IMG/VR virus record: IMGVR_UViG_3300049811_000333 | Location: 1 to 64,000 of that record | Origin: a virus | Length of the DNA: 64,000 bases | Strand: one strand, 5' to 3' | In this document: piece after piece, positions 33,555 to 49,209 of the stretch | How the letters are laid out: each line of letters starts with the position of its first letter | Position numbering within the stretch: position 1 is the stretch's first letter | Position numbers and translations under genes: made by a program | Notes under the pieces: model-generated | Databases searched by the model: none | Told to the model about the DNA's origin: nothing | The model's input: the letters and a program-made list of their open reading frames with translations, nothing else

Positions 33555-34568
33555 TCATCGTGCGGCCTCGTCAATCTCCTCTTTCGAGAGCTTGTCGGAC
33601 GGGTAGGTCGAGTAGCCGAGCGAGGACCAGATGTGATCCTCGATCTCCTCAGCTGTGACGCCGTTCATCTCCAGGAAGTCCGCGACGTCGTCGGGACGAG
33701 AGCGAGCAAGCTCCCGGAGCCGCGCGAATTGCGATCCCGACGTGAGGGACATCGTCTCGCGATCATACGGGTCAGAAAACCGGGAGTTGTAGCTCCGAAA
33801 GGAATTGTGCCAGCCGTCATCGCCGGGCGTGCGCTCGATGATGAGCGACGAGAGGTCGGCGTTGATGACCGCATCGCGGAGCTTGAAGAGGTATTCCACG
33901 TCGAGGGTCTCGTCTCGCGAGTGCTCGTTGACGAACCCGACCGAGACGTTGGAGCACTCCGCGATGATGTCGGAATAGTTGGCGGTATCCGTGAAGATGC
34001 CGCCGTCGTCCGGCTTGTGATCCATGCCGAGAGCAAACGCGAGGCTCCGGGCGAAGGCGTCCGAGGCCGTCATGCCCCACCCTTGGTGGGTGATGATGGA
34101 CTGGGTCCTGCGCCGGTCGAAGGCGACGGCCGCCTCGATGCCTTGCAAGAGGTGTTGATTGTGCGCGGCGAAATACTTGCTACCGACGCCGCCGGTCTCC
34201 TCCTGGCGGTGGAACACGTAGAGGCCCGGAACCCCGGCAAGGATCATCTCGCGCAGCATCCAGACCCCGGCCGCGTTGTCCGCTCCGAGGCAATTGGACT
34301 CTTTCTCCTCGCGGTGCAGCTTGAGCTTGGTTCCCTTGAGGGCGATGCGTTGCTTGCCAGCGGTGATGTGAACGCTGTCGGTGTGTGCTGACCACAGGAT
34401 GCGAGGGCTGTCCCCGATCTTGAGGTAGCGGTTGCCCTGGTTGTCGCACTCAGCACCCAGTGAGGTGATGAAGCGCTTGATGAAGTCGCGCTCCGAGTTG
34501 GAGCCATGCGGCCTGCGATACAGGAGCATGGCGATGAGCGCTTCGTAGTCCGCGTGTGCGGGTTTCAT
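33555..34568 (-). CDS. M28/M20-clan zinc metallopeptidase-like protein
   Basis: SAHTDSVH, LGADN..G, EE.GG.GS, AFDRR, G.FTD, G...EH..E zinc-ligand motifs. Confidence 0.88.
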   Translation of the reverse strand: MKPAHADYEALIAMLLYRRPHGSNSERDFIKRFITSLGAECDNQGNRYLKIGDSPRILWSAHTDSVHITAGKQRIALKGTKLKLHREEKESNCLGADNAAGVWMLREMILAGVPGLYVFHRQEETGGVGSKYFAAHNQHLLQGIEAAVAFDRRRTQSIITHQGWGMTASDAFARSLAFALGMDHKPDDGGIFTDTANYSDIIAECSNVSVGFVNEHSRDETLDVEYLFKLRDAVINADLSSLIIERTPGDDGWHNSFRSYNSRFSDPYDRETMSLTSGSQFARLRELARSRPDDVADFLEMNGVTAEEIEDHIWSSLGYSTYPSDKLSKEEIDEAAR

Positions 34569-34578
34569 TGTGTCCTTT

Positions 34579-36312
34579 CTAGGCCGCGAGGGCCCTGGCT
34601 AGATCTTCTTTTCGGATCTCATCGGAGAACCGAGAGCGTTCCCATGCGTTCGTGGTGTAGGCGGCAACGATCAAGAGGTCGTGCCAGCTTTTGGAAGGCG
34701 AGAGGTCGCCGTGCAGTCCGGACCAGGCGTCTGCTTCAGACGTGGCAAGGGCTGGCTCTTTCGCGATGTCCGCCTTGTCGTAATACTTGCCGTCGATCTC
34801 GATCCCGTCCTCGCGGAAGGCGAACTCGGACCACGTCTCGCCGTTCTCCATCTCGTAGCTAGGCACGGAGTCATCGACTCTCGCGTCGAGGCGGTCGCAG
34901 TAGTAGGTGTCGCTTTCGATGTGCCACGTTGCCCACATGACCTCCTCGTATCCGCGAGTGCGGGTGCGCGTTCTGACGAGAACCGCGCCCGCCACGTTGT
35001 CGGCGACGTATTCGTCGGACCTGTGGCACCAAGTCGCATGGTCCCCACGGCAGTGGTTGCACCACGTCTCTGACTCGCGCCTGCCGACTGTGACGCAATA
35101 CATATCGTCTTCGTCGTAGCTTTCTTCGCAGCGCTCGCAGGTGCAGCGAGGTCCTGGGTCCTCGCGATTGAGGCCGTGCTGGTAGCAGGCGTCATCGCCG
35201 CTATCGGCGATCACGACCCACTCCGAGTTGACCTCGCGATAAGCCTGGGTGCCGTCGATGTAGGGCATGACGAGGCAGTCATCGTAACGCTCGTCCTCGA
35301 TCCGGCGGATTTTCGCGCCGATGAGGTCGGACCCGTCCGACTCCTCCTGAGTGTAGCCGAGGTCGCCGAGCATCTTCATAATGCGAAGACTGTCGCCGTA
35401 AACCCGGCCGATAGCCTTTTTCTCCGGCCATACGAGAGCGCGCGAGGTGATGCGGTCCTCTTTCTTGAGCCTGAGATAGGCCAGCTGGAGGTCGCTGTTG
35501 CCGTAGACGTGGACGGGGTGGACGCAAGACATATAGACGTCCCGCCTCTTGGACATGCAAGAGCTCGGACCGCGCGTGTAAACGCGCTCGATCTCTTCGG
35601 CCGTGACGGCGAAGCCGAGTTCGTATTCCGCGTAATCCCGGCCCATATCGCCGACGAGGTTGGCGATCACAGGGTCCGAAAGATGCGGGTAGAATTGCTT
35701 GAGATACCGTCCGGGGCGGAGGGTGATCTTGCGGTTGCGTTTCCCGTACTCCTCGCTCGGCGTGTAGGCCACCTTGGTGGGGTCTTGCGTCGAGATGTGC
35801 GCGAAGTGGCCGGGGATGCGGTCGAGGCTGATGTCCCACGGCACCGACGCATACTGGCGCTGGAGCCGGAGGTATTCGCGGGCTTCCCAGTCCATGCGGT
35901 CGCCAACTTCGTGGAAGTTGTTGGCGTGCTCGCGCTCGGAGAACCAGTTCGTTGCCTCGGAATACCGGAGGGCGTGGTAAATCCCGTCATAGGCGGGAGA
36001 CAGGAAGTGCTCCCGCCGCAGGAAGTAGATGGGGTTGACGCACTGGGCGCCGTAGTTGGTGTAGTGGTGCCGCGCCATCTCGCCCGGAAGGGTGAGCATG
36101 GTGTTGCAGTAGCCGAGCATCTTGAAGTGCCTGGTCAGGCCATCGAGGTCAACGTGACGCTCGATGATGTCCGCGACCCCGGAGGGCGAGGGATACCCGT
36201 CCGAGAGAGGGCGATCCCGGAGATCATCCGGGAGAGCCCGGAGCAAGAGGGCCACCCAGTACGCATTGACGGCGTCCTCGTTGGTGAGCTTGGTGTTCTG
36301 GCGGAGTTCCAT
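34579..36312 (-). CDS. 577-aa unknown protein (SCM / RALVW / RVYG / MPYID motifs) with an acidic Cys-rich C-terminus
   Basis: GAGGTG RBS before MELRQN; the longer ORF call overlaps tRNA genes. Confidence 0.8.
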   Translation of the reverse strand: MELRQNTKLTNEDAVNAYWVALLLRALPDDLRDRPLSDGYPSPSGVADIIERHVDLDGLTRHFKMLGYCNTMLTLPGEMARHHYTNYGAQCVNPIYFLRREHFLSPAYDGIYHALRYSEATNWFSEREHANNFHEVGDRMDWEAREYLRLQRQYASVPWDISLDRIPGHFAHISTQDPTKVAYTPSEEYGKRNRKITLRPGRYLKQFYPHLSDPVIANLVGDMGRDYAEYELGFAVTAEEIERVYTRGPSSCMSKRRDVYMSCVHPVHVYGNSDLQLAYLRLKKEDRITSRALVWPEKKAIGRVYGDSLRIMKMLGDLGYTQEESDGSDLIGAKIRRIEDERYDDCLVMPYIDGTQAYREVNSEWVVIADSGDDACYQHGLNREDPGPRCTCERCEESYDEDDMYCVTVGRRESETWCNHCRGDHATWCHRSDEYVADNVAGAVLVRTRTRTRGYEEVMWATWHIESDTYYCDRLDARVDDSVPSYEMENGETWSEFAFREDGIEIDGKYYDKADIAKEPALATSEADAWSGLHGDLSPSKSWHDLLIVAAYTTNAWERSRFSDEIRKEDLARALAA

Positions 36313-36365
36313 ATTCACCTCGTGGTTGCGTGAGAGTATTCCCTGTGTATACACACAAGGCATGA

Positions 36366-36443
36366 TGGCGCCCCTACGAGGGATCGAACCTCGATTTCGC
36401 AGCCGAGCGGCTTCGCGTCCTAGTCCAGTTAGACGATAGGGGC
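36366..36443 (-). tRNA. Atypical tRNA-Glu-like, 8-nt anticodon loop CCGCUCGG
   Basis: Acceptor GCCCCUA/UAGGGGC, D stem GUCU/GGAC, T arm CGAGG-UUCGAUC-CCUCG, G73, encoded CCA. Confidence 0.85.
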
Positions 36444-36450
36444 AGTGAGT

Positions 36451-36528
36451 TGGCCTCGCTTGCGGGAGTCGAACCACGCATTTCGCAGCCGAGAGGCAGC
36501 GCGTCCTATGCCATTAGACGAAAGCGAG
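36451..36528 (-). tRNA. Atypical tRNA-Glu-like, 8-nt loop CCUCUCGG, bulged T stem
   Basis: Acceptor CUCGCUU/AAGCGAG, D stem GUCU/GGAC, GCGUGG-UUCGACU-CCCGC, GCCA. Confidence 0.85.
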
Positions 36529-36535
36529 GAAGGGA

Positions 36536-36787
36536 TTAGAAGTAGAAGTCAGCGGCGAGGCCATTCCCTTGCCAGACTTCCACACGAAACGGCATCGAGG
36601 TGCGCAGGGTGCGCGTGTCTTGATCCTCAAAGGCGAAGTCTGCGAGCTTCGCAGGAGAGCCGCCGTAGTACGCGATGATCGTGGTGTAGTCGCGCGCACA
36701 GCCATCGAACTGGAACGTAAAGTCCTTGAACGAGAGGAAGCCGAGGCGCAGGTCGCCGTACTTCTCAAGCAATTCGTCGCGCGTCAT
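36536..36787 (-). CDS. Hypothetical protein between the tRNA-like genes
   Basis: GGAGG RBS, MTRDELLEKYGD..F..FTF. Confidence 0.65.
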   Translation of the reverse strand: MTRDELLEKYGDLRLGFLSFKDFTFQFDGCARDYTTIIAYYGGSPAKLADFAFEDQDTRTLRTSMPFRVEVWQGNGLAADFYF

Positions 36788-36805
36788 GCGATCCTCCGAG
36801 AGAGT

Positions 36806-36881
36806 TGGCGCCCCTGGCGGGAGTCGAACCGCGCCTTTCACAGCCGAGAAGCCGTATGTCCTGCCACTAGACGACAGGGGC
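36806..36881 (-). tRNA. Atypical tRNA-Glu-like, 8-nt loop CUUCUCGG, bulged T stem
   Basis: Acceptor GCCCCUG/CAGGGGC, D stem GUCU/GGAC, GCGCGG-UUCGACU-CCCGC, GCCA. Confidence 0.85.
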
Positions 36882-36888
36882 ATGAGGG

Positions 36889-37254
36889 TTACGGGGATTT
36901 ACGGAAGTCCACCGCGACGCTGTAGTATCCATTCGAGGAGCCCAGCCAGCGCAAGGTGACGTGCCCCTTGATGGTGCCGAACTTGTAGAAGGTCCACATC
37001 GAGATGCCGTCGATGCCTTCACCTGCGTCTGAGTTCTCCTCAGAGGCTTCGAGGATGGGCGAGCCGATGAGGTCATCGAGCGAGCCGATGGTCTCTTCGA
37101 GGTAAACGCTTTCGCAGCAATCCTGCATGTGGCCCATCCAGTAGAGAGAGCCATCATCGAGGGTGAAGCTAAGGCCATCGCCATCATCCACGATAGAGAC
37201 GATGGTTTTGCCGATGAGGTCAAATACTGGCGTATTTTTCCAGCCGTACTTCAT
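36889..37254 (-). CDS. Conserved phage protein (H.QDCCESV / SNGYYS family)
   Basis: HMQDCCESVYLE..DLIG.PIL.A..WTFY..T.KG.V..RW.G.SNGYYS. Confidence 0.8.
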   Translation of the reverse strand: MKYGWKNTPVFDLIGKTIVSIVDDGDGLSFTLDDGSLYWMGHMQDCCESVYLEETIGSLDDLIGSPILEASEENSDAGEGIDGISMWTFYKFGTIKGHVTLRWLGSSNGYYSVAVDFRKSP

Positions 37255-37267
37255 GCGAGCCTCCGTT

Positions 37268-37312
37268 GTGAGGTTGCTAGGCGGCACGCGAGGTGCCGCC
37301 ACGGAACATCAC
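37268..37312 (-). promoter_or_regulatory. Conserved long intergenic hairpin, copy 1 (possible RNase III-type site)
   Basis: Shares TGAGGTTGCTA..GCGGCAC..GAGG.TGCCGC..GGAAC.TCA with 38164-38209. Confidence 0.55.
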
Positions 37313-37602
37313 AGGCCGTGGTCAGAGCCGAACCGTTCGCGGCCGGGGTCCACGCAGGTCACTTCGAAGTCGATGGGGGCTTCCACGAAGAGAGCCGACG
37401 CGATGGCGTTCGCGATGTCACTGGAGCGCGCCATGCGGGCGGCTTGGATTTTCTCCACGATCTCGTAGAGGCGCGCGAACTCGCGGGTGCAGGTGGCTGC
37501 GAGGTAGTCATCGTCCGGCACGTAGTACGCCACCATGGCCGCATCGAGCGCGTAGCGGCCAGTGACGAAGAGATCGAGGCACTCGGCCTGCGTGAGCTTC
37601 AT
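37309..37602 (-). CDS. Hypothetical protein
   Basis: 97-aa ORF. Confidence 0.55.
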   Translation of the reverse strand: MKLTQAECLDLFVTGRYALDAAMVAYYVPDDDYLAATCTREFARLYEIVEKIQAARMARSSDIANAIASALFVEAPIDFEVTCVDPGRERFGSDHGL

Positions 37603-38508: not shown

Positions 38509-39680
38509 GACGCGGAACCGGATGGAACACGCGGTCGCCGGGGATGTAGGCGGGGGTGGGGGCGAGGCGCCAGAACTTGATGCGCCAGCGTCCGATGGCG
38601 AGAGTGTGAAGCCCGCCGATGCGAGTGTGCTTAAACATAGCTAAGCCTCCGCAAGAGGCGCACACCCTACGTGTGCGCCCGTCGCGAGGGCCGCGCTGTG
38701 GTGGTTTGCCAAGAGACGCGCCGTCCGGTCGTGCACCTAAGCACCGATCACCCCTGCCTCCCAAAGTCAGACGGGCAGGCCGTCGCGGGACTTACCGCCT
38801 TGGCAAATTGTTTTTCGCGAGGGCTTCCGGGGTTTGGACCCCCGGAGCCGCCCGGATCACGCGAGAGAGGAACCGGCGAGCATGGCCTTGGATTGGAGGT
38901 CGATACCCCGGACGAGGCTGTCGTATTCCTCCCGCGAGATGAGGCCGTCCATGTACCGCTCATCGAGGCGGTCCATCTGGCGTTCAACCCAGAGTTCGAC
39001 GAGGTGTTCGCGCATGGCAATAACTCCCGAAAGGTGAGCGCGAGAGGCGCCCACGTCGCGAGAGTCGGTCAGGTCGCGAGAGTTGGCCCCCTCCGGGGTC
39101 TCAATCCGGAGGGGCGCGAGATCAGAGTTGTCGCGAGGCGATGTAGTCCGCCGTCTCCAGGTTAAGGCTCTGGATCAGGCTGGGGTCGCCATCGTCGGGG
39201 GAAAATTCGAGGTCAATCAGCTTGGCGAGGTCGTCCCCATGGATGCGCTGGGCATACATGAAGGTCTCGGCCGATTTGTAGTCGGCGAACTCCTGGAAGT
39301 CGCCCGTGATCCCCCGAGGGGTGACATGGACGACCGAGACATGGTAAGGCATGGGTGTGCTCCACATGATGCGCGCCCGTAGTGGGCGCGCACGACGTGA
39401 GGCGCACGCGCGCGTAGTGGGACCCGAGGCGCCGAGGTGCCGCCGGGAAAATTCGGATTTGTCGATTTTCAGAACCCGGAAGTTCCGGGCACCGATCACT
39501 TTTCCGTGATGATGCGGCGCACAAAACGTCCACGGACTATTGTGCGGCGCACACTCCGGGCACGGATCACTTTCTCGTGATGCTGCGATGCACGCTCCGA
39601 ACCCGGATCACATTCCCGTGATCCGTGAACGCAACATTGTGCAACGCAATCTCGCGGTTGCGTTGTACGATGCAGCGCAC

Positions 39681-39711
39681 AAAAAAAAACGGGCGGCCCG
39701 AAAGCCGCCCG
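39681..39711 (-). terminator. Rho-independent terminator
   Basis: CGGGCGGC..GCCGCCCG hairpin plus a T run on the minus strand. Confidence 0.85.
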
Positions 39712-39731
39712 CCCGATACTCCCGGCCCGGA

Positions 39732-39992
39732 TTAAATCCCGGCCACGTAAATCGGGCACCGTTTCCCGATGCCCCGATGGTAGGCCACGGCCACGTCCAA
39801 CCCGTGGTGAACGTCCGGATAGGGTATGGCCGGACCCTGCCCAATGGCCACGGTCAGGCATCGGGCCGACTGCCCGCGCATTAGTCGGTCATGCGCCTCC
39901 GCCTTCATGGCGGCCCGCCGCGCATAAAAGTCCCGGGCAACGGCCCGGATAGCGGCCATACGTTCCTGCTTCTGTTCCGGTGTCATGGTCAA
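39732..39992 (-). CDS. Hypothetical early protein
   Basis: Coupled to the upstream ORF; ends before a terminator. Confidence 0.55.
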   Translation of the reverse strand: MTMTPEQKQERMAAIRAVARDFYARRAAMKAEAHDRLMRGQSARCLTVAIGQGPAIPYPDVHHGLDVAVAYHRGIGKRCPIYVAGI

Positions 39993-40687
39993 AGATCCTC
40001 CAATGCCAAAATCCCGGCCGATAGGTCGGTTTTGATTTCGTTCGCCTTCAATCGCAACGTGCCGATTGTCTTTGGCCTGACCGATTGCTTAACCGGACGC
40101 GGTCCGGCCGCCTTCCGGGCGGCTTCAATCTTCGCCCGGGTCTCGGCCTTAAGTCCGGCCTTCCGGATACGTTCGATTGCCCGCGCTTCCTGGCGTCCGG
40201 CCAATGCCGCCGCCCGGAACAGCTTGCGCCGCGCCTTGGCTATCGCCTTGGCGGCGGCTTTCGCCTTCCGGCCATGGACGATCCGGACCGGGGTAACGGT
40301 CCGGGTAAAAACATTCAACGTGTCGGCGGCCCGATAGGCCTTGCCGACAAACCCGTCCGTAATCTGATCTTTCTTGATTGGTTTCGGCCGGGACGGTCTC
40401 TTAACTATGACCCGCCCGCCCTCAATCCGGACCGGCTCCCGGTTCACTAACCGGCCATCCGCGTTCACATAGCATCCACCGTGAACATTACCTTCACGGC
40501 CCGTTTGCGGGTTCACGCCACCGGACGCGGCGTGCCGCGTCATGTGCCGGACTTCCCACGGGATGCCGTTTTGATTGGTTGCGGTTCGCACCTCCTGGAC
40601 CGTTTCCCGGAACAGTTGGCTGTTATGCCATCCCGTTACGGTCCCGGCCCTCCGGTTGCGCCGCGCTTGCCTGTTGTGGCTCGCCAT
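39989..40687 (-). CDS. Highly basic early protein
   Basis: AAAGGGA RBS; K/R/A-rich, 232 aa. Confidence 0.65.
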   Translation of the reverse strand: MASHNRQARRNRRAGTVTGWHNSQLFRETVQEVRTATNQNGIPWEVRHMTRHAASGGVNPQTGREGNVHGGCYVNADGRLVNREPVRIEGGRVIVKRPSRPKPIKKDQITDGFVGKAYRAADTLNVFTRTVTPVRIVHGRKAKAAAKAIAKARRKLFRAAALAGRQEARAIERIRKAGLKAETRAKIEAARKAAGPRPVKQSVRPKTIGTLRLKANEIKTDLSAGILALEDL

Positions 40688-40976
40688 TGCGTTCCCTTTC
40701 CTGGGTTTATCGGCTGACCCGGTGCTAGCCCGGATCGGTCCGCCGCCGCCCATGACCGGGCGACAAAATGAATAGTACGCTTTCCGTTGATACCGCTCTA
40801 ATCACGTGAAATCACGAACTCGTGATGTTGTTTTCGTTTGGTTTTTCGCCGTTTGAACCGTGTTCGCCCCATATCCGTGTGCGTCCTTGTGATCGCTTTC
40901 CTTGATAAATGCACGTCTTGCACTTGCAACAAATACCTGGGCACCTGTCAATCCTTACACTGACGATTGACCTAGC

Positions 40977-41000
40977 AAAAAGCCCGGGCGAACCGGGCTT
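40977..41000 (-). terminator. Rho-independent terminator
   Basis: AAGCCCGG-TTCGC-CCGGGCTT followed by TTT. Confidence 0.75.
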
Positions 41001-41005
41001 GATGC

Positions 41006-41311
41006 CTATGGCAATGGCGGCGGTGGGGCTTCATTCCATGTGTTGCCCCGGGCAACGGCCATGTTCCACCGCCAGGATACCCGGGCTTGCTCCCGTTCCC
41101 GGCCCGTGGCCGTGGCCATCCACCGCCGGGCATCGCCCGCTTGATCCAGTGCCCGGGCATACTGTGAACGGGCCGCAATCTTCAACGCTGCGCTAATGCC
41201 ATCGGCATCGCTGAACAGCGCCAGCACTTCCGGCCGCCCGGAATTTATCATCCGCATACGTTCACGGTCTCGGATCGTATCGGCCGCCGACTTCATGTTA
41301 TATCGTAACAT
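41006..41311 (-). CDS. Hypothetical early protein
   Basis: AGGAGG RBS, MLRYNMKS; followed by a terminator. Confidence 0.6.
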   Translation of the reverse strand: MLRYNMKSAADTIRDRERMRMINSGRPEVLALFSDADGISAALKIAARSQYARALDQAGDARRWMATATGREREQARVSWRWNMAVARGNTWNEAPPPPLP

Positions 41312-42476
41312 TGCTTTGCCTCCTGTGATTTGCTGCACCCTGTATATACGCCTCTTTATACCCGCCTTCAATCCCGTACAGAATTACCGCCCAAAATAGC
41401 CGCCCGGTGTCATCCTACCCGGGATAGCTGCGCCGGCCCTAATCCAATCCCCCCGGCCACGTCCAACCCCTATCCAGTCGCCCACGGCCCGGAACCCGGA
41501 ACAGACTCCCGCCCTATGGGATGCAATAGGGAATGGTCAGGATACGGACGAACCCGCCCCAACTGCCTATCATCCGTGTGCCTCGGAATTGTGTAACAGT
41601 TGTGGGGGGATTGTTCGCCGACCCTCTATCCCCCGCCCCACAAAGCAAACGCCTCCCGCTTCCGCTCCCCTCTCTCGCCGCCCTAGTCCGGGTTCGCGAC
41701 TATCGCCGGACGGGCGCCAACCCGGTCCGGCCCTCTCTATTGTTTATTTTTTTTGTCTGATTTGTTTGGCTCGGATCGGTCTCAATCCCTGACTGTCACC
41801 TATCCCCATGGTCCGGACTTGCTACCTGGTATCATCCGTGTGCTCCGGACGTACCATGCCCATCCGCCTACATGATTGTCTGATGTCTGATTATTCTTTT
41901 ACTTGTCAATAGCTTAGTTCTACTGTGAACCCTGACTTATGTCTGTTCTGTGAACTCTGATTACTTCAATCTATTGAAATCGTTGGGGATTATTATTCTC
42001 TGTTCACATCTGGATCACAGAAACGTGATCGTGTTCATGGTTTGTTCGCGTGACGCATACGGAAATTCAGGGTGCGGACGGCATCAGTGCCACCCCCACA
42101 ACACAATCCTCATAAGAGCACTTGCACTTGCAACAGGAGTGTCCGGGCTTGTTGCCATTCGTCGGGCATGAGGATGCTATATCCGACGTTTGGTATCATA
42201 CCCCCTACCCTTTTTTCTCAGGGATGGGTCCCTCTTTTACGGGTTCTTCCTTTTCACGAGCCCGCTGCCTCGCGGCTCGACAGCTGCTGCACATGCAGGG
42301 ACCTGAGTCAGGGAGCTCAGACGAGTAGTGGCCCATTAGGGGTGTCCTTTTTCTGGTGGGATGGGTCCCCCGGTAGGGGCCTGTTAGGGACCCATCGGGA
42401 AATTCTATCAGTGTACCCCGGTATATCAATTGGACGGTCCGGGTCCCCCTCCCCATGTATACCCCAGGAGGTACCC

Positions 42477-45541: not shown

Positions 45542-45997
45542 ATGGCAAAGAATACGGTCAACTGGAAGCACGACTTGAAGGGCACGCGCTCTGACTCCCG
45601 GGAGAGTTTCACCCAGGAGCAGGTGGCCGAAGCCCTCGTGGCGGCTGGGGGTGTGCAGGCGGACGCGGCGCGGATCCTTGGATGCTCGCGCACGACCATC
45701 AACGGCTATGTCCGCCGCTACCCCAACCTCCAGGAACTGATCATCAACGCCCGTGAGGAGACCCTGGACCTCGCGGAGAGCCAACTCCTGAAGAAGGTGA
45801 AGGAGGGCAACATGACCGCCATCATCTTCTACCTGAAGACCCAGGGTAAGCAGCGCGGTTACGTCGAGAAGGGGGAGGCGCCTCAGAAGCCGGACGAGAC
45901 CCAGGACTTCTCCACGGCGACGACAGAGGAGCTTCAGGAGCTTGAACGGGAACTTGCTGGCCTCAATTCCGCCAAGCCTCCGCGCCTCAACTCTTGA
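45542..45997 (+). CDS. terS: Terminase small subunit (HTH)
   Basis: HTH AARILGCSRTTI; AE..L...G..TAIIFYLKT.GK.RGY; directly upstream of terL. Confidence 0.8.
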   Translation: MAKNTVNWKHDLKGTRSDSRESFTQEQVAEALVAAGGVQADAARILGCSRTTINGYVRRYPNLQELIINAREETLDLAESQLLKKVKEGNMTAIIFYLKTQGKQRGYVEKGEAPQKPDETQDFSTATTEELQELERELAGLNSAKPPRLNS

Positions 45998-47432: not shown

Positions 47433-49025
47433 ATGGCCATCGACCCCTCAAAAATTGCCTCCGACCTCGGCGCTATGAGCGAGGACTGGCTCCTGCTCCG
47501 CTCGATCATGGGCGGGACCCCGGAGATGCGGAACCAAGGTGAAACCTACCTCCCCAAGTATGATGGGGAGAGCGACACCACCTACGAAAACCGGAAAAAG
47601 CGGTCCGTTCTGACCAATTATTTGGAGGACGCGGTCCGCAACGCCGTCTCCCTGCCGTTCCGCAAGGACATCCTTGTCGGCGAAAACGTCGATGACGACA
47701 TCAAGGAGCTCTTCAAGAACATCGACCTCGTGGGGAATGACATCACCCAGTTCGGCCGCCTCACCATGGACGACGGCGGGTTGATGGGCCTCGCGTTTAT
47801 CCTGGTCGACTTCTCCAAGAACGAGACGGATGGAACCCTGAAGGCCGAGGGCGATGCCGCCCTTCGGCCGTATTGGACCCTCATCAAGGCCGATGACGTC
47901 CTGGCCTGCTACACAGAGATCGTGGGCGACCGCGAGAAGGTCTACCACTTCCGTTACAAGGAGACGATCACCCGCATCGACGAGGAATACGTCGAGACGG
48001 TGGTCGAGCGCGTCCGCGTCTACAAGCCCGGAGAGTGGGAAATCTGGGAGAAGGACAAGGGCGAGTGGAAGATGGTCGACTCCGGCCCCATGACCATCAC
48101 CGAGGAAGTCCCCGTCGTCCCCGTGTTCTGCGGCAAGCGCCTCAATGGCTTCCGGGTCCGCCCCCTGTTTATCGATTTGGCCTATAAGCAGGTCGAGCAC
48201 TGGCAGAGTGCTTCTGACCAGCGCAACATCCTGTCCTTCGCCCGCTTCCCGATGCTGGCTTGCTCCGGCACCGGGACGACCATGCAGGATGCCGAGATCA
48301 CGGTCGGCCCCTCGCGAGTCCTGACCACCGAGCAGTCGGACGGCAAGTGGTACTACGTGGAGCCCAAGGGCGATGCCATCGAGGCCGGACGCAAGGACCT
48401 CGAAAATCTGAAGGAGGAGATGCGGATCCTTGGTCTGCAGCCCATCGTCGGGAAGTACCAGAACGTCACCGCCACCTCGCGTGCTCTCGACGAGACACGC
48501 GTGTACTCGGCTGTTCAGGTCCTGGCCATGAACCTGGAAGACGCGCTCATCCGGGCGACCGACTTCACCGAGCGCTGGCTGGGCCGAGAGCCGACCCCGG
48601 ACAAGGAAATCCACGTCAACCGCGACTTCAACCTGTCGATCCGCGACACCGCGGAAGTCGACAGCCTCATCCGCTCGCGCATCACGGGCGAAATCTCGCG
48701 CCGGACCTTCTGGGAAGAGCTCCAGCGCCGCGGCACCCTGGCCCCGGACTTCGACCCGGACGAGGAGCAGGCCCAGCTGGATTACGAATTCCAGAACGGC
48801 CAGATCCCCTTCACTGTGTCGGCAGAGCTTCCGGGCGTGGAACTGACCCAGTCCGAGAAGAACGCCAACAAGGCGACCGACATCACCAACACCTTCGGCG
48901 AGATCAACAACGCCCGCAACAAGGCAGCCAAGAAGGGCCGGACCAATATCCGGTCCAACGAGCCTGCCAGCGCGTCGAAGGACAGTTCTTCGCTCCTCGA
49001 CCTCAAGATGAGGCAGTCGCAGTAG
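47433..49025 (+). CDS. Portal protein (DUF4055-like)
   Basis: GG...MR..G..YLP..E....Y..R; P..DLA..H.Q..SD; follows terL. Confidence 0.9.
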   Translation: MAIDPSKIASDLGAMSEDWLLLRSIMGGTPEMRNQGETYLPKYDGESDTTYENRKKRSVLTNYLEDAVRNAVSLPFRKDILVGENVDDDIKELFKNIDLVGNDITQFGRLTMDDGGLMGLAFILVDFSKNETDGTLKAEGDAALRPYWTLIKADDVLACYTEIVGDREKVYHFRYKETITRIDEEYVETVVERVRVYKPGEWEIWEKDKGEWKMVDSGPMTITEEVPVVPVFCGKRLNGFRVRPLFIDLAYKQVEHWQSASDQRNILSFARFPMLACSGTGTTMQDAEITVGPSRVLTTEQSDGKWYYVEPKGDAIEAGRKDLENLKEEMRILGLQPIVGKYQNVTATSRALDETRVYSAVQVLAMNLEDALIRATDFTERWLGREPTPDKEIHVNRDFNLSIRDTAEVDSLIRSRITGEISRRTFWEELQRRGTLAPDFDPDEEQAQLDYEFQNGQIPFTVSAELPGVELTQSEKNANKATDITNTFGEINNARNKAAKKGRTNIRSNEPASASKDSSSLLDLKMRQSQ

Positions 49026-49134: not shown

Positions 49135-49209
49135 ATCGGCGTGGTGTAACTGGCAGCATTGGGGTCTCCAAAACCCCAGGTCCAGGATCGTTGCCTGGCG
49201 CCCTTGCCA
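49135..49209 (+). tRNA. Degenerate tRNA-Trp(CCA)
   Basis: Anticodon arm GGGGU-CUCCAAA-ACCCC, G73-CCA; T loop AUCGUUG and two acceptor-stem mismatches. Confidence 0.7.

Follow-up and report, generated by a model that had tools for sequence, protein, structure and literature searches.

The first 64 kilobases (kb) of the 80.6-kb IMG/VR virus record IMGVR_UViG_3300049811_000333 (61% G+C; estimated completeness, 87%), referred to here as the window, contain three genes for RNAs that resemble tRNA-Glu(CUC) and whose anticodon arm has an unusual length. All three of these odd tRNA genes are co-oriented on the minus strand and lie within a long block of minus-strand genes, upstream of a gene pair that encodes a 577-amino acid (aa) protein and an M28-like metallopeptidase. 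The features of the locus, including one further open reading frame (ORF) and with lengths in nucleotides (nt) or aa, are as follows in the order of the strand.

36889-37302, minus strand: gene for a DUF7448 protein, which precedes copy 3.
36806-36881, minus strand: copy 3, tRNA-Glu(CUC)-like, 76 nt; loop CUUCUCGG at 36844-36851; bulged T stem; G73 and encoded CCA.
36536-36787, minus strand: 83-aa ORF between copies 3 and 2, with a GGAGGA ribosome-binding site 7 nt upstream of the ATG.
36451-36528, minus strand: copy 2, tRNA-Glu(CUC)-like, 78 nt; loop CCUCUCGG at 36489-36496; bulged T stem; acceptor stem CUCGCUU/AAGCGAG with C1-G72.
36366-36443, minus strand: copy 1, tRNA-Glu(CUC)-like, 78 nt; loop CCGCUCGG at 36403-36410; regular T arm.
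34579-36312, minus strand: gene for the 577-aa protein, starting 53 nt downstream of copy 1.
33555-34568, minus strand: gene for the M28-like metallopeptidase (phrog_4191), directly after the 577-aa gene.

Apart from the 53 nt that separate copy 1 from the 577-aa gene, the gaps around the three RNAs measure 7-18 nt, and a scan of positions 35800-37600 for promoters and terminators revealed no such site among the RNAs. Given these tight gaps and the lack of internal signals, the RNAs are most likely processed from a polycistronic transcript, and host tRNA-processing enzymes presumably excise them from the long operon RNA. The 83-aa ORF showed no family match and had no relative among the fetched loci. 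A palindrome centered on GTGTATACAC occupies 36340-36360 in the gap that separates copy 1 from the 577-aa gene; the window has no second match to it, and a single match is not unusual by chance. The palindrome could serve in protein binding or processing. Canonical tRNA-Glu is absent from this phage according to ARAGORN, and its tRNA-Glu set consists of the odd copies only. The sole other tRNA-like gene in the window is an ARAGORN call for tRNA-Trp(CCA) at 49135-49209 on the plus strand. It has two mismatches in the acceptor stem, scores below the Rfam gathering score and follows a gene ending at 49025 that, judged by position only, is probably the portal gene.

The anticodon arm comprises 18 nt in each of the three copies, one more than the canonical 17, and reads CGAAG-CCGCUCGG-CUGCG in copy 1, CGCUG-CCUCUCGG-CUGCG in copy 2 and UACGG-CUUCUCGG-CUGUG in copy 3. 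These arms agree letter for letter with those in a preliminary description of the locus, which placed 8 nt between two 5-nt stem strands. In this 8-nt register, four of the five stem positions pair in copy 1 (with an A.G mismatch) and in copy 2 (with a U.U mismatch), and all five pair in copy 3, two of them as G.U. Both possible registers with a 7-nt loop yield just 0-2 of five pairs, as had been noticed for copies 1 and 2 and as we found for copy 3 as well. An arginine UCU anticodon in a 7-nt loop was rejected, given that no 7-nt register pairs. The minimum-energy fold of each arm is a stem of 7 base pairs (bp) with a GCUC or UCUC tetraloop. ARAGORN instead models all three copies with a 6-bp stem and a 6-nt loop (“anticodon ct”), and if the loop is taken as six bases, CUC is immediately preceded by G in copy 1 and by U in the other two copies.

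GluRS, the glutamyl-tRNA synthetase, identifies its substrate by the D helix of tRNA-Glu (U11-A24 and U13.G22) together with a 4-nt variable loop that lacks position 47. The D stem GUCU/GGAC, with U11-A24 and U13.G22, is invariant, and so are the tRNA-Glu features of the body in general. The bodies also contain G18G19, the T-loop sequence UUCGA and a variable loop of 4 nt, either AAAU or AAAG. The acceptor stems GCCCCUA (copy 1), CUCGCUU (copy 2) and GCCCCUG (copy 3) are dissimilar and yet paired at 7 of 7 positions in each case, as had been reported previously, and all three copies end with G73 and an encoded CCA. One T-stem base is bulged in each of copies 2 and 3. Among the features expected of a canonical elongator tRNA, the copies therefore possess the cloverleaf, the 7-bp acceptor stem, the discriminator base, CCA, the tRNA-Glu D helix and the 4-nt variable loop, and they depart from the canonical anticodon arm, in which a 5-bp stem bears a 7-nt loop that includes U33 and purine 37. 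The Rfam tRNA model (RF00005) passed copy 3 alone (39.6 bits) and missed copies 1 and 2 even at E values up to 10.

Rejection of two copies by the Rfam model and the single anticodon-stem mismatch in each of them are features that might be shown by decaying tRNA pseudogenes or by assembly errors with a spurious base. We looked for relatives with a pattern that combined the tRNA-Glu D arm and the odd loop. This pattern returned 97 stretches from IMG/VR, the clean tRNA-like genes among which amounted to 36 distinct sequences on about 28 contigs, often in pairs; an earlier, narrower DNA pattern had given no match in IMG/VR. A scan of metagenomes added 96 further distinct sequences. The odd arm was thus seen in more than 100 distinct tRNA-Glu-like sequences from the two sources, always with CUC. 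In an alignment of 34 members, 92.7% of cells were paired, compared with 69% in shuffles, and the covariation score was 0.614, compared with 0.151 in shuffles; in the acceptor stem, the T stem and the 5-bp anticodon stem alike, each pair showed compensatory changes. Decay or misassembly is thus extremely improbable, since the three copies in this phage and more than 100 distinct relatives from independent samples carry the same arm and since compensatory changes and fully paired acceptor stems are maintained. The preliminary description had argued for selection rather than decay from the acceptor stems, a view now strengthened by the compensatory changes among relatives, and had named an indel error or relatives with normal 7-nt loops as ways in which it could be mistaken. 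Neither applies: the relatives have the odd arm as well, and an indel or sequencing error is thereby excluded. The three genes encode real, selected RNAs derived from tRNA-Glu(CUC).

In a sample that was not biased toward the odd arm, consisting of 85 phage tRNA-Glu genes with the acceptor sequence GCUCCC, 82 had a normal 7-nt loop, mostly with UUC, and three had the odd arm, all with CUC. A search of the literature found no description of an odd-loop tRNA-Glu class, and the only 8-nt loop in a 2020 review of non-canonical natural tRNAs is that of a yeast mitochondrial tRNA (PMC7609411). The family, which is large and occurs in phages and a few bacteria, has thus apparently not been described so far. 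A BLAST search of a 651-nt region of the locus against cultured phages gave no match, and a search with the tRNA of one relative matched ordinary tRNA-Glu genes only, such as tRNA-Glu-TTC of Bradyrhizobium phage BDU-MI-1. In the latter phage (KY940711.1, 114085-117791), the ordinary tRNA-Glu(UUC) gene lies ~2 kb upstream of genes for a (p)ppGpp synthetase and an RtcB RNA ligase, an arrangement suggestive of tRNA damage and repair during infection. A related provirus (L009:6519-6591) contains a non-Glu tRNA-like gene, directly after tRNA-Pro, for which ARAGORN predicts a four-base anticodon, gata, in an 8-nt loop.

Counted as in the frameshift suppressor SufJ, the loop has three bases 5' of CUC rather than the usual two, yet its outer bases are C-G in 103 of 104 distinct members and A-U in the remaining one. 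When all loop positions except CUC were left free in a scan, the first position was C and the last G, with one U..G exception. The helix including this closing pair measures 6 bp in 89 of the 104 sequences, 5 bp in nine and 7 bp in six, and some members have a 16-nt arm with the identical type of six-base loop and no extra base. Given that the outer bases pair as C-G and that the 16-nt arms carry the same loop, the loop is better read as six bases, Y-N-C-U-C-R, closed by a Watson-Crick pair than as an open 8-nt loop. The ~7-bp stem with a tetraloop that had been proposed for each arm is indeed the minimum-energy fold of the copies described here, but it is particular to this phage. It was rejected as a structure for the whole family, given that 26 of 34 relatives do not form the second extra pair, which creates the tetraloop. 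At the last position of the six-base loop, most relatives have A in place of the G of this phage, and it is this G that allows the arm to zip on to a 7-bp hairpin. The base 5' of CUC was U in 17, C in 15, G in three and A in one of the first 36 members, and such variation is unlike that of a decoding U-turn base (U33).

An arm that is longer by one base, with the extra base 5' of CUC, recalls SufJ, a frameshift suppressor form of Salmonella tRNA-Thr in which insertion of C31.5 creates a non-Watson-Crick contact, C31.5.A38 (PMC4238358). On this analogy, the odd tRNAs would be natural +1 frameshifters or readers of GAG-N quadruplets. GAG would be read in the A site, the extra base 5' of the anticodon would distort the arm and induce a +1 slip, and the result would be a programmed shift or a disturbance of host translation. 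The intact body and CCA end are compatible with such a function, and the flanks of CUUCUCGG can be fitted as C32-U33 / UCUC / G37-G38. Arrays of two to four odd copies nearly always repeat one loop, and a set of quadruplet readers that spans all GAG-N was rejected as a general rule for this reason. One metagenomic array (L389:1813-2215, minus strand) consists of three tandem odd genes with the loops CUGCUCGG, CUACUCGG and CCGCUCGG and is the sole one seen with systematic differences in the base before CUC; its combination of loops would suit a set of frameshifters, whereas the uniformity of the other arrays would not. Two features of the arm itself are also at odds with a SufJ-like mechanism: the six-base loop is equally present on 16-nt arms, which have no extra base, and the outer bases form a Watson-Crick C-G pair in place of the non-Watson-Crick contact of SufJ (PMC4238358).

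Codon usage in the phage weighs further against efficient shifting. GAG accounts for 947 of 1,424 glutamate codons (66.5%), or about 4% of about 23,000 codons, and is followed by A in 31%, C in 26%, G in 31% and T in 11% of cases, which is close to the context of other codons. With 88% of GAG codons followed by A, C or G in an ordinary context, efficient reading of GAGA, GAGC or GAGG would wreck the phage's own proteins. A search for +1 junctions with GAG between adjacent genes yielded no convincing case, only an ordinary-looking overlap at 45942 between two plus-strand genes. Efficient quadruplet reading by the odd tRNAs is therefore unlikely, and we consider the frameshift explanation as a whole to be unlikely as well. 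In SufJ, decoding itself takes place in the zero frame and the shift follows afterwards (PMC4238358), so that a weak SufJ-like +1 effect is possible. The preliminary description had offered two readings, natural readers of GAGA and GAGC quadruplets or RNAs disabled for decoding. The first fits poorly with the abundance and ordinary context of GAG, with the arrays that repeat one loop and with the failure to find a gene that requires a +1 shift. The second is better matched by the C-G-closed six-base loop, by the 16-nt arms, by the presence of U before CUC in only about half of the members and by the bulged T stems of copies 2 and 3.

The plus strand of the window also contains a stretch of 2,682 nt without GAG (39434-42116), which corresponds to 49 times the mean spacing; no gap of any other trinucleotide in the genome comes close to this size. 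AG, AGA and AGG are depleted there too, and 9.6 GAG would still be expected from a dinucleotide model built on the stretch itself. No good ORF was found between about 40753 and 42317.

The family is divided into two main loop types. The phage type has loops of the form CC-N-CUC-R-G and includes copies 1 and 2. The CUUCUCGG type, to which copy 3 belongs, is also common in bacterial chromosomal settings, where it is found on contigs of 100-200 kb beside the gene for pyruvate kinase, an NFACT/RqcH-type gene, or tRNA-Thr and tRNA-Tyr; CCA is not encoded in these bacterial copies, and the T stem is again bulged. One such locus is on a Capsulimonadaceae chromosome. Two Coriobacteriia genomes (G021 and G022) contain canonical tRNA-Glu(UUC), canonical tRNA-Glu(CUC) and an odd gene beside tRNA-Val, and the odd gene is supernumerary in both. 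The same is true of some phages, such as L002, L079 and L112, in which odd copies adjoin canonical tRNA-Glu(CUC), but not of the phage described here. The scan of bacterial genomes gives no frequencies: among the matches listed, three of 120 were clearly tRNA-like and the rest were mostly due to chance. A dedicated role in heme synthesis was set aside, given that glutamyl-tRNA reductase is present in all three bacterial carriers but in most bacteria too. A search for lanthipeptide dehydratases gave no match, but it missed its controls as well; neither of these two results carries weight. Two 7-nt-loop tRNA-Glu(CUC) genes, at L002:5452-5527 and L112:12657-12732 (minus strand), have C33 in place of the universal U33 (loops UCCUCAC and CCCUCAC), and both adjoin odd-arm copies in related phages.

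Remodeling of the loop might alternatively serve to evade host defense. The odd RNAs would then be working decoders of GAG triplets whose altered loop escapes a host anticodon nuclease or a tRNA-modifying toxin directed against tRNA-Glu. GAG is the major glutamate codon of this phage, which has no canonical tRNA-Glu, and the C33 tRNA-Glu(CUC) genes of related phages represent another oddity of the loop. We know of no nuclease specific for tRNA-Glu(CUC), however, and the would-be U33 is U in about half of the members. Bacteria that hold the odd gene alongside canonical UUC and CUC genes would have little to gain from evasion, which also leaves the linkage to the 577-aa/M28 pair unexplained. Phage tRNAs are able to dodge tRNA-targeting defenses through changes in the anticodon loop (PMC10264068), and yeast mitochondria read triplets with a tRNA that has an 8-nt loop (PMC3113583). 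The described nuclease-evading phage tRNAs have base substitutions in a canonical loop that are matched to a known host nuclease, whereas the odd tRNAs have a loop of changed size, and the report on evasion mentions neither tRNA-Glu nor changes in loop size (PMC10264068). On balance, evasion appears improbable.

The presence of several divergent copies per phage, each with a body that mimics the identity marks of tRNA-Glu and an altered decoding end, is also what might be expected of decoys or sponges that titrate a host factor, be it a tRNA-directed defense nuclease, GluRS or another tRNA-Glu-binding enzyme. The ability of the arm to close into a hairpin in this phage would suit such a role. 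This explanation seems distinctly improbable to us, given that the encoded CCA, G73 and CUC are retained as if charging matters, that bacteria have chromosomal copies, and that no candidate target was found; PADLOC gave no match among the neighboring genes of the odd tRNAs.

In phages, odd genes of the CC-N-CUC type are associated with the 577-aa and M28-like genes. Within the few kb fetched around each tRNA, the pair was present at nine of 28 odd-tRNA contigs and at none of 115 canonical phage tRNA-Glu loci that were fetched in the same way (Fisher p = 1.3e-7), and the genomic linkage is real. Searches of whole records found the pair in 17 of the 28 contigs. Of the remaining 11, eight were negative by whole-record search, seven of these being less than 80% complete, and three were covered over the fetched stretch alone. 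The distance between tRNA and pair is mostly 0.2-4 kb, with the tRNAs upstream in some phages and downstream in others. When the analysis was repeated with metagenomes, the pair was found at 16 of 113 odd-tRNA loci, and at 9 of 44 among loci of at least 4 kb; the pair-positive loci were all of the CC type. Another deviant tRNA-Glu(CUC), L379, is located directly upstream of the pair. An IMG/VR search for relatives of the 577-aa protein, seeded by an alignment of eight sequences, yielded 32 loci, almost everywhere with the M28-like gene directly after the 577-aa gene. In a tree of the 577-aa core, odd-tRNA carriers were scattered over deep branches, with 8 changes compared with 15.5 in shuffles.

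The 577-aa protein has 65 homologs, all unnamed and mostly viral; it matched no Pfam, PHROG, NCBIfam or PADLOC family and showed no sequence match to any solved structure, and the ESM Atlas contains only virus-specific “hypothetical protein” clusters for it. Residues invariant in the family include a Ser-Cys-Met motif, several Arg and Tyr, Pro-Tyr-x-Asp and two CxxC pairs. AlphaFold gave a confident model of the protein (mean pLDDT, 89). A Foldseek search gave nothing significant, its best weak rows being GNAT-fold proteins that included the tRNA-dependent domain of MprF. In an exhaustive structural search with the core only, the top 50 matches were all members of the GNAT superfamily (Z of 5.2-7.1, where values below 8 are regarded as weak; 77-97 residues aligned), with the aminoacyl-tRNA transferases FemX, MprF and Sbb17 among them. 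Given the uniformity of this list, the modeled core is likely GNAT-like; the corresponding region spans residues about 225-326, and the two CxxC pairs follow the core. The peptidase matched phrog_4191 strongly and Pfam M28 weakly, with no sequence match in PDB.

We propose, with a probability of roughly 40%, that the odd RNAs are glutamate-accepting tRNAs that have been withdrawn from routine decoding and that, in phages, serve the adjacent GNAT-like/M28 module. The body retains the features that GluRS and processing enzymes would require (7-bp acceptor stem, G73, CCA, D helix, 4-nt variable loop, elbow bases and CUC), and the decoding end is rebuilt into a covarying 5-bp stem plus a C-G pair that closes the six-base Y-N-C-U-C-R loop. 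A GluRS gene was not found in this phage or in five relatives, so that the host would have to provide the enzyme for charging, in keeping with the conservation of CUC and the tRNA-Glu body. Host GluRS would thus charge the odd RNAs with glutamate, and their loop would largely exclude them from ordinary codon reading. They might then be set aside as a supply of Glu-tRNA, or act as a cofactor in the shape of a tRNA, for a step outside the ribosome that in phages would most likely be performed by the 577-aa protein together with the M28-like peptidase. A more specific and more tentative version of this proposal is a phage module for tRNA-dependent glutamyl transfer. In such a module, dedicated Glu-tRNAs with a closed six-base loop and no part in decoding would feed the GNAT-like protein, which would act as a transferase and attach glutamate to a target of the phage or the host; the M28-like protein would trim or reverse this mark. 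In bacteria, the CUUCUCGG genes would play the equivalent role, as a Glu-tRNA pool kept for non-ribosomal purposes.

Several observations weigh against the withdrawal of the odd tRNAs in favor of this module. GluRS normally reads the anticodon loop, so that a six-base loop might impair charging. Only two of the 32 contigs found by way of the 577-aa protein contain an odd tRNA; the pair does not need the odd tRNA in most phages that bear it, and it presumably works there with a host tRNA if it uses a tRNA at all. The 577-aa family is absent from the bacterial CUUCUCGG carriers, so that this subtype, at least, works without the protein. The linkage could also reflect inherited synteny, with the association having a single origin, and the weak GNAT similarity of the model (Z below 8) would fit acetyl-CoA and aminoacyl-tRNA donors alike. 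Finally, yeast mitochondrial tRNA-Thr shows that a natural 8-nt loop is compatible with triplet decoding (PMC3113583).

Among known systems, the odd tRNAs resemble the elongator tRNA-Glu(CUC) of bacteria and phages, as represented by RF00005, in the cloverleaf, 7-bp acceptor stem, G73 or A73, CCA, D helix, 4-nt variable loop, UUCGA and CUC, and in their location beside canonical tRNA-Glu(CUC) in some phages or within tRNA clusters in bacteria. They differ from it in that the arm is 18 nt (rarely 16) rather than 17, the six-base loop is closed by C-G, position 33 is not consistently U, copies 2 and 3 have a bulge in the T stem, and only copy 3 passes the Rfam threshold. With SufJ they share an extra pyrimidine, usually C, on the 5' side of the loop, and in both, the 3' part of the loop and the anticodon keep their place with respect to the 3' stem strand. 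SufJ is a laboratory mutant that keeps U33, however, whereas the odd tRNAs are closed by C-G, often lack U33 and in some cases lack the extra base; they are natural, multi-copy and widespread genes, known here from sequence. Staphylococcus has non-proteinogenic tRNA-Gly isoacceptors that decode weakly and are used by Fem transferases. The odd tRNAs similarly can stand as supernumerary genes beside normal isoacceptors, have an intact acceptor end and show changes expected to lower their use in translation, and a protein with a possible GNAT fold is encoded nearby as a potential user (Z of 5.2-7.1, a weak structural match). The Staphylococcus tRNAs have a normal 7-nt loop and established transferases, whereas here the loop is odd and a transferase role for the 577-aa protein is a weak structural hint. 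Yeast mitochondrial tRNA-Thr(UAG), like the odd tRNAs, is a natural tRNA with a loop that counts eight bases (PMC3113583, PMC7609411). It differs from them in being organellar, single-copy and the sole reader of CUN triplets. To our knowledge, the ends of its loop are not closed by a Watson-Crick pair.

The size of the anticodon loop is among the most constant features of tRNAs, and enlarged or shrunken loops are known to us almost solely from laboratory suppressors or organelles. Here a rebuilt loop is held under selection in more than 100 distinct natural genes, always with a tRNA-Glu body and CUC, in phages and on some bacterial chromosomes. If the odd tRNAs decode normally, they would redefine the tolerance of the ribosome, and if they shift the frame, they would be the first natural frameshifter tRNAs of bacteria or phages. 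If, as we favor, they are charged but do not decode, they would reveal an unrecognized non-ribosomal use of Glu-tRNA in phage infection and would provide the first functional handle on a widespread phage gene pair.

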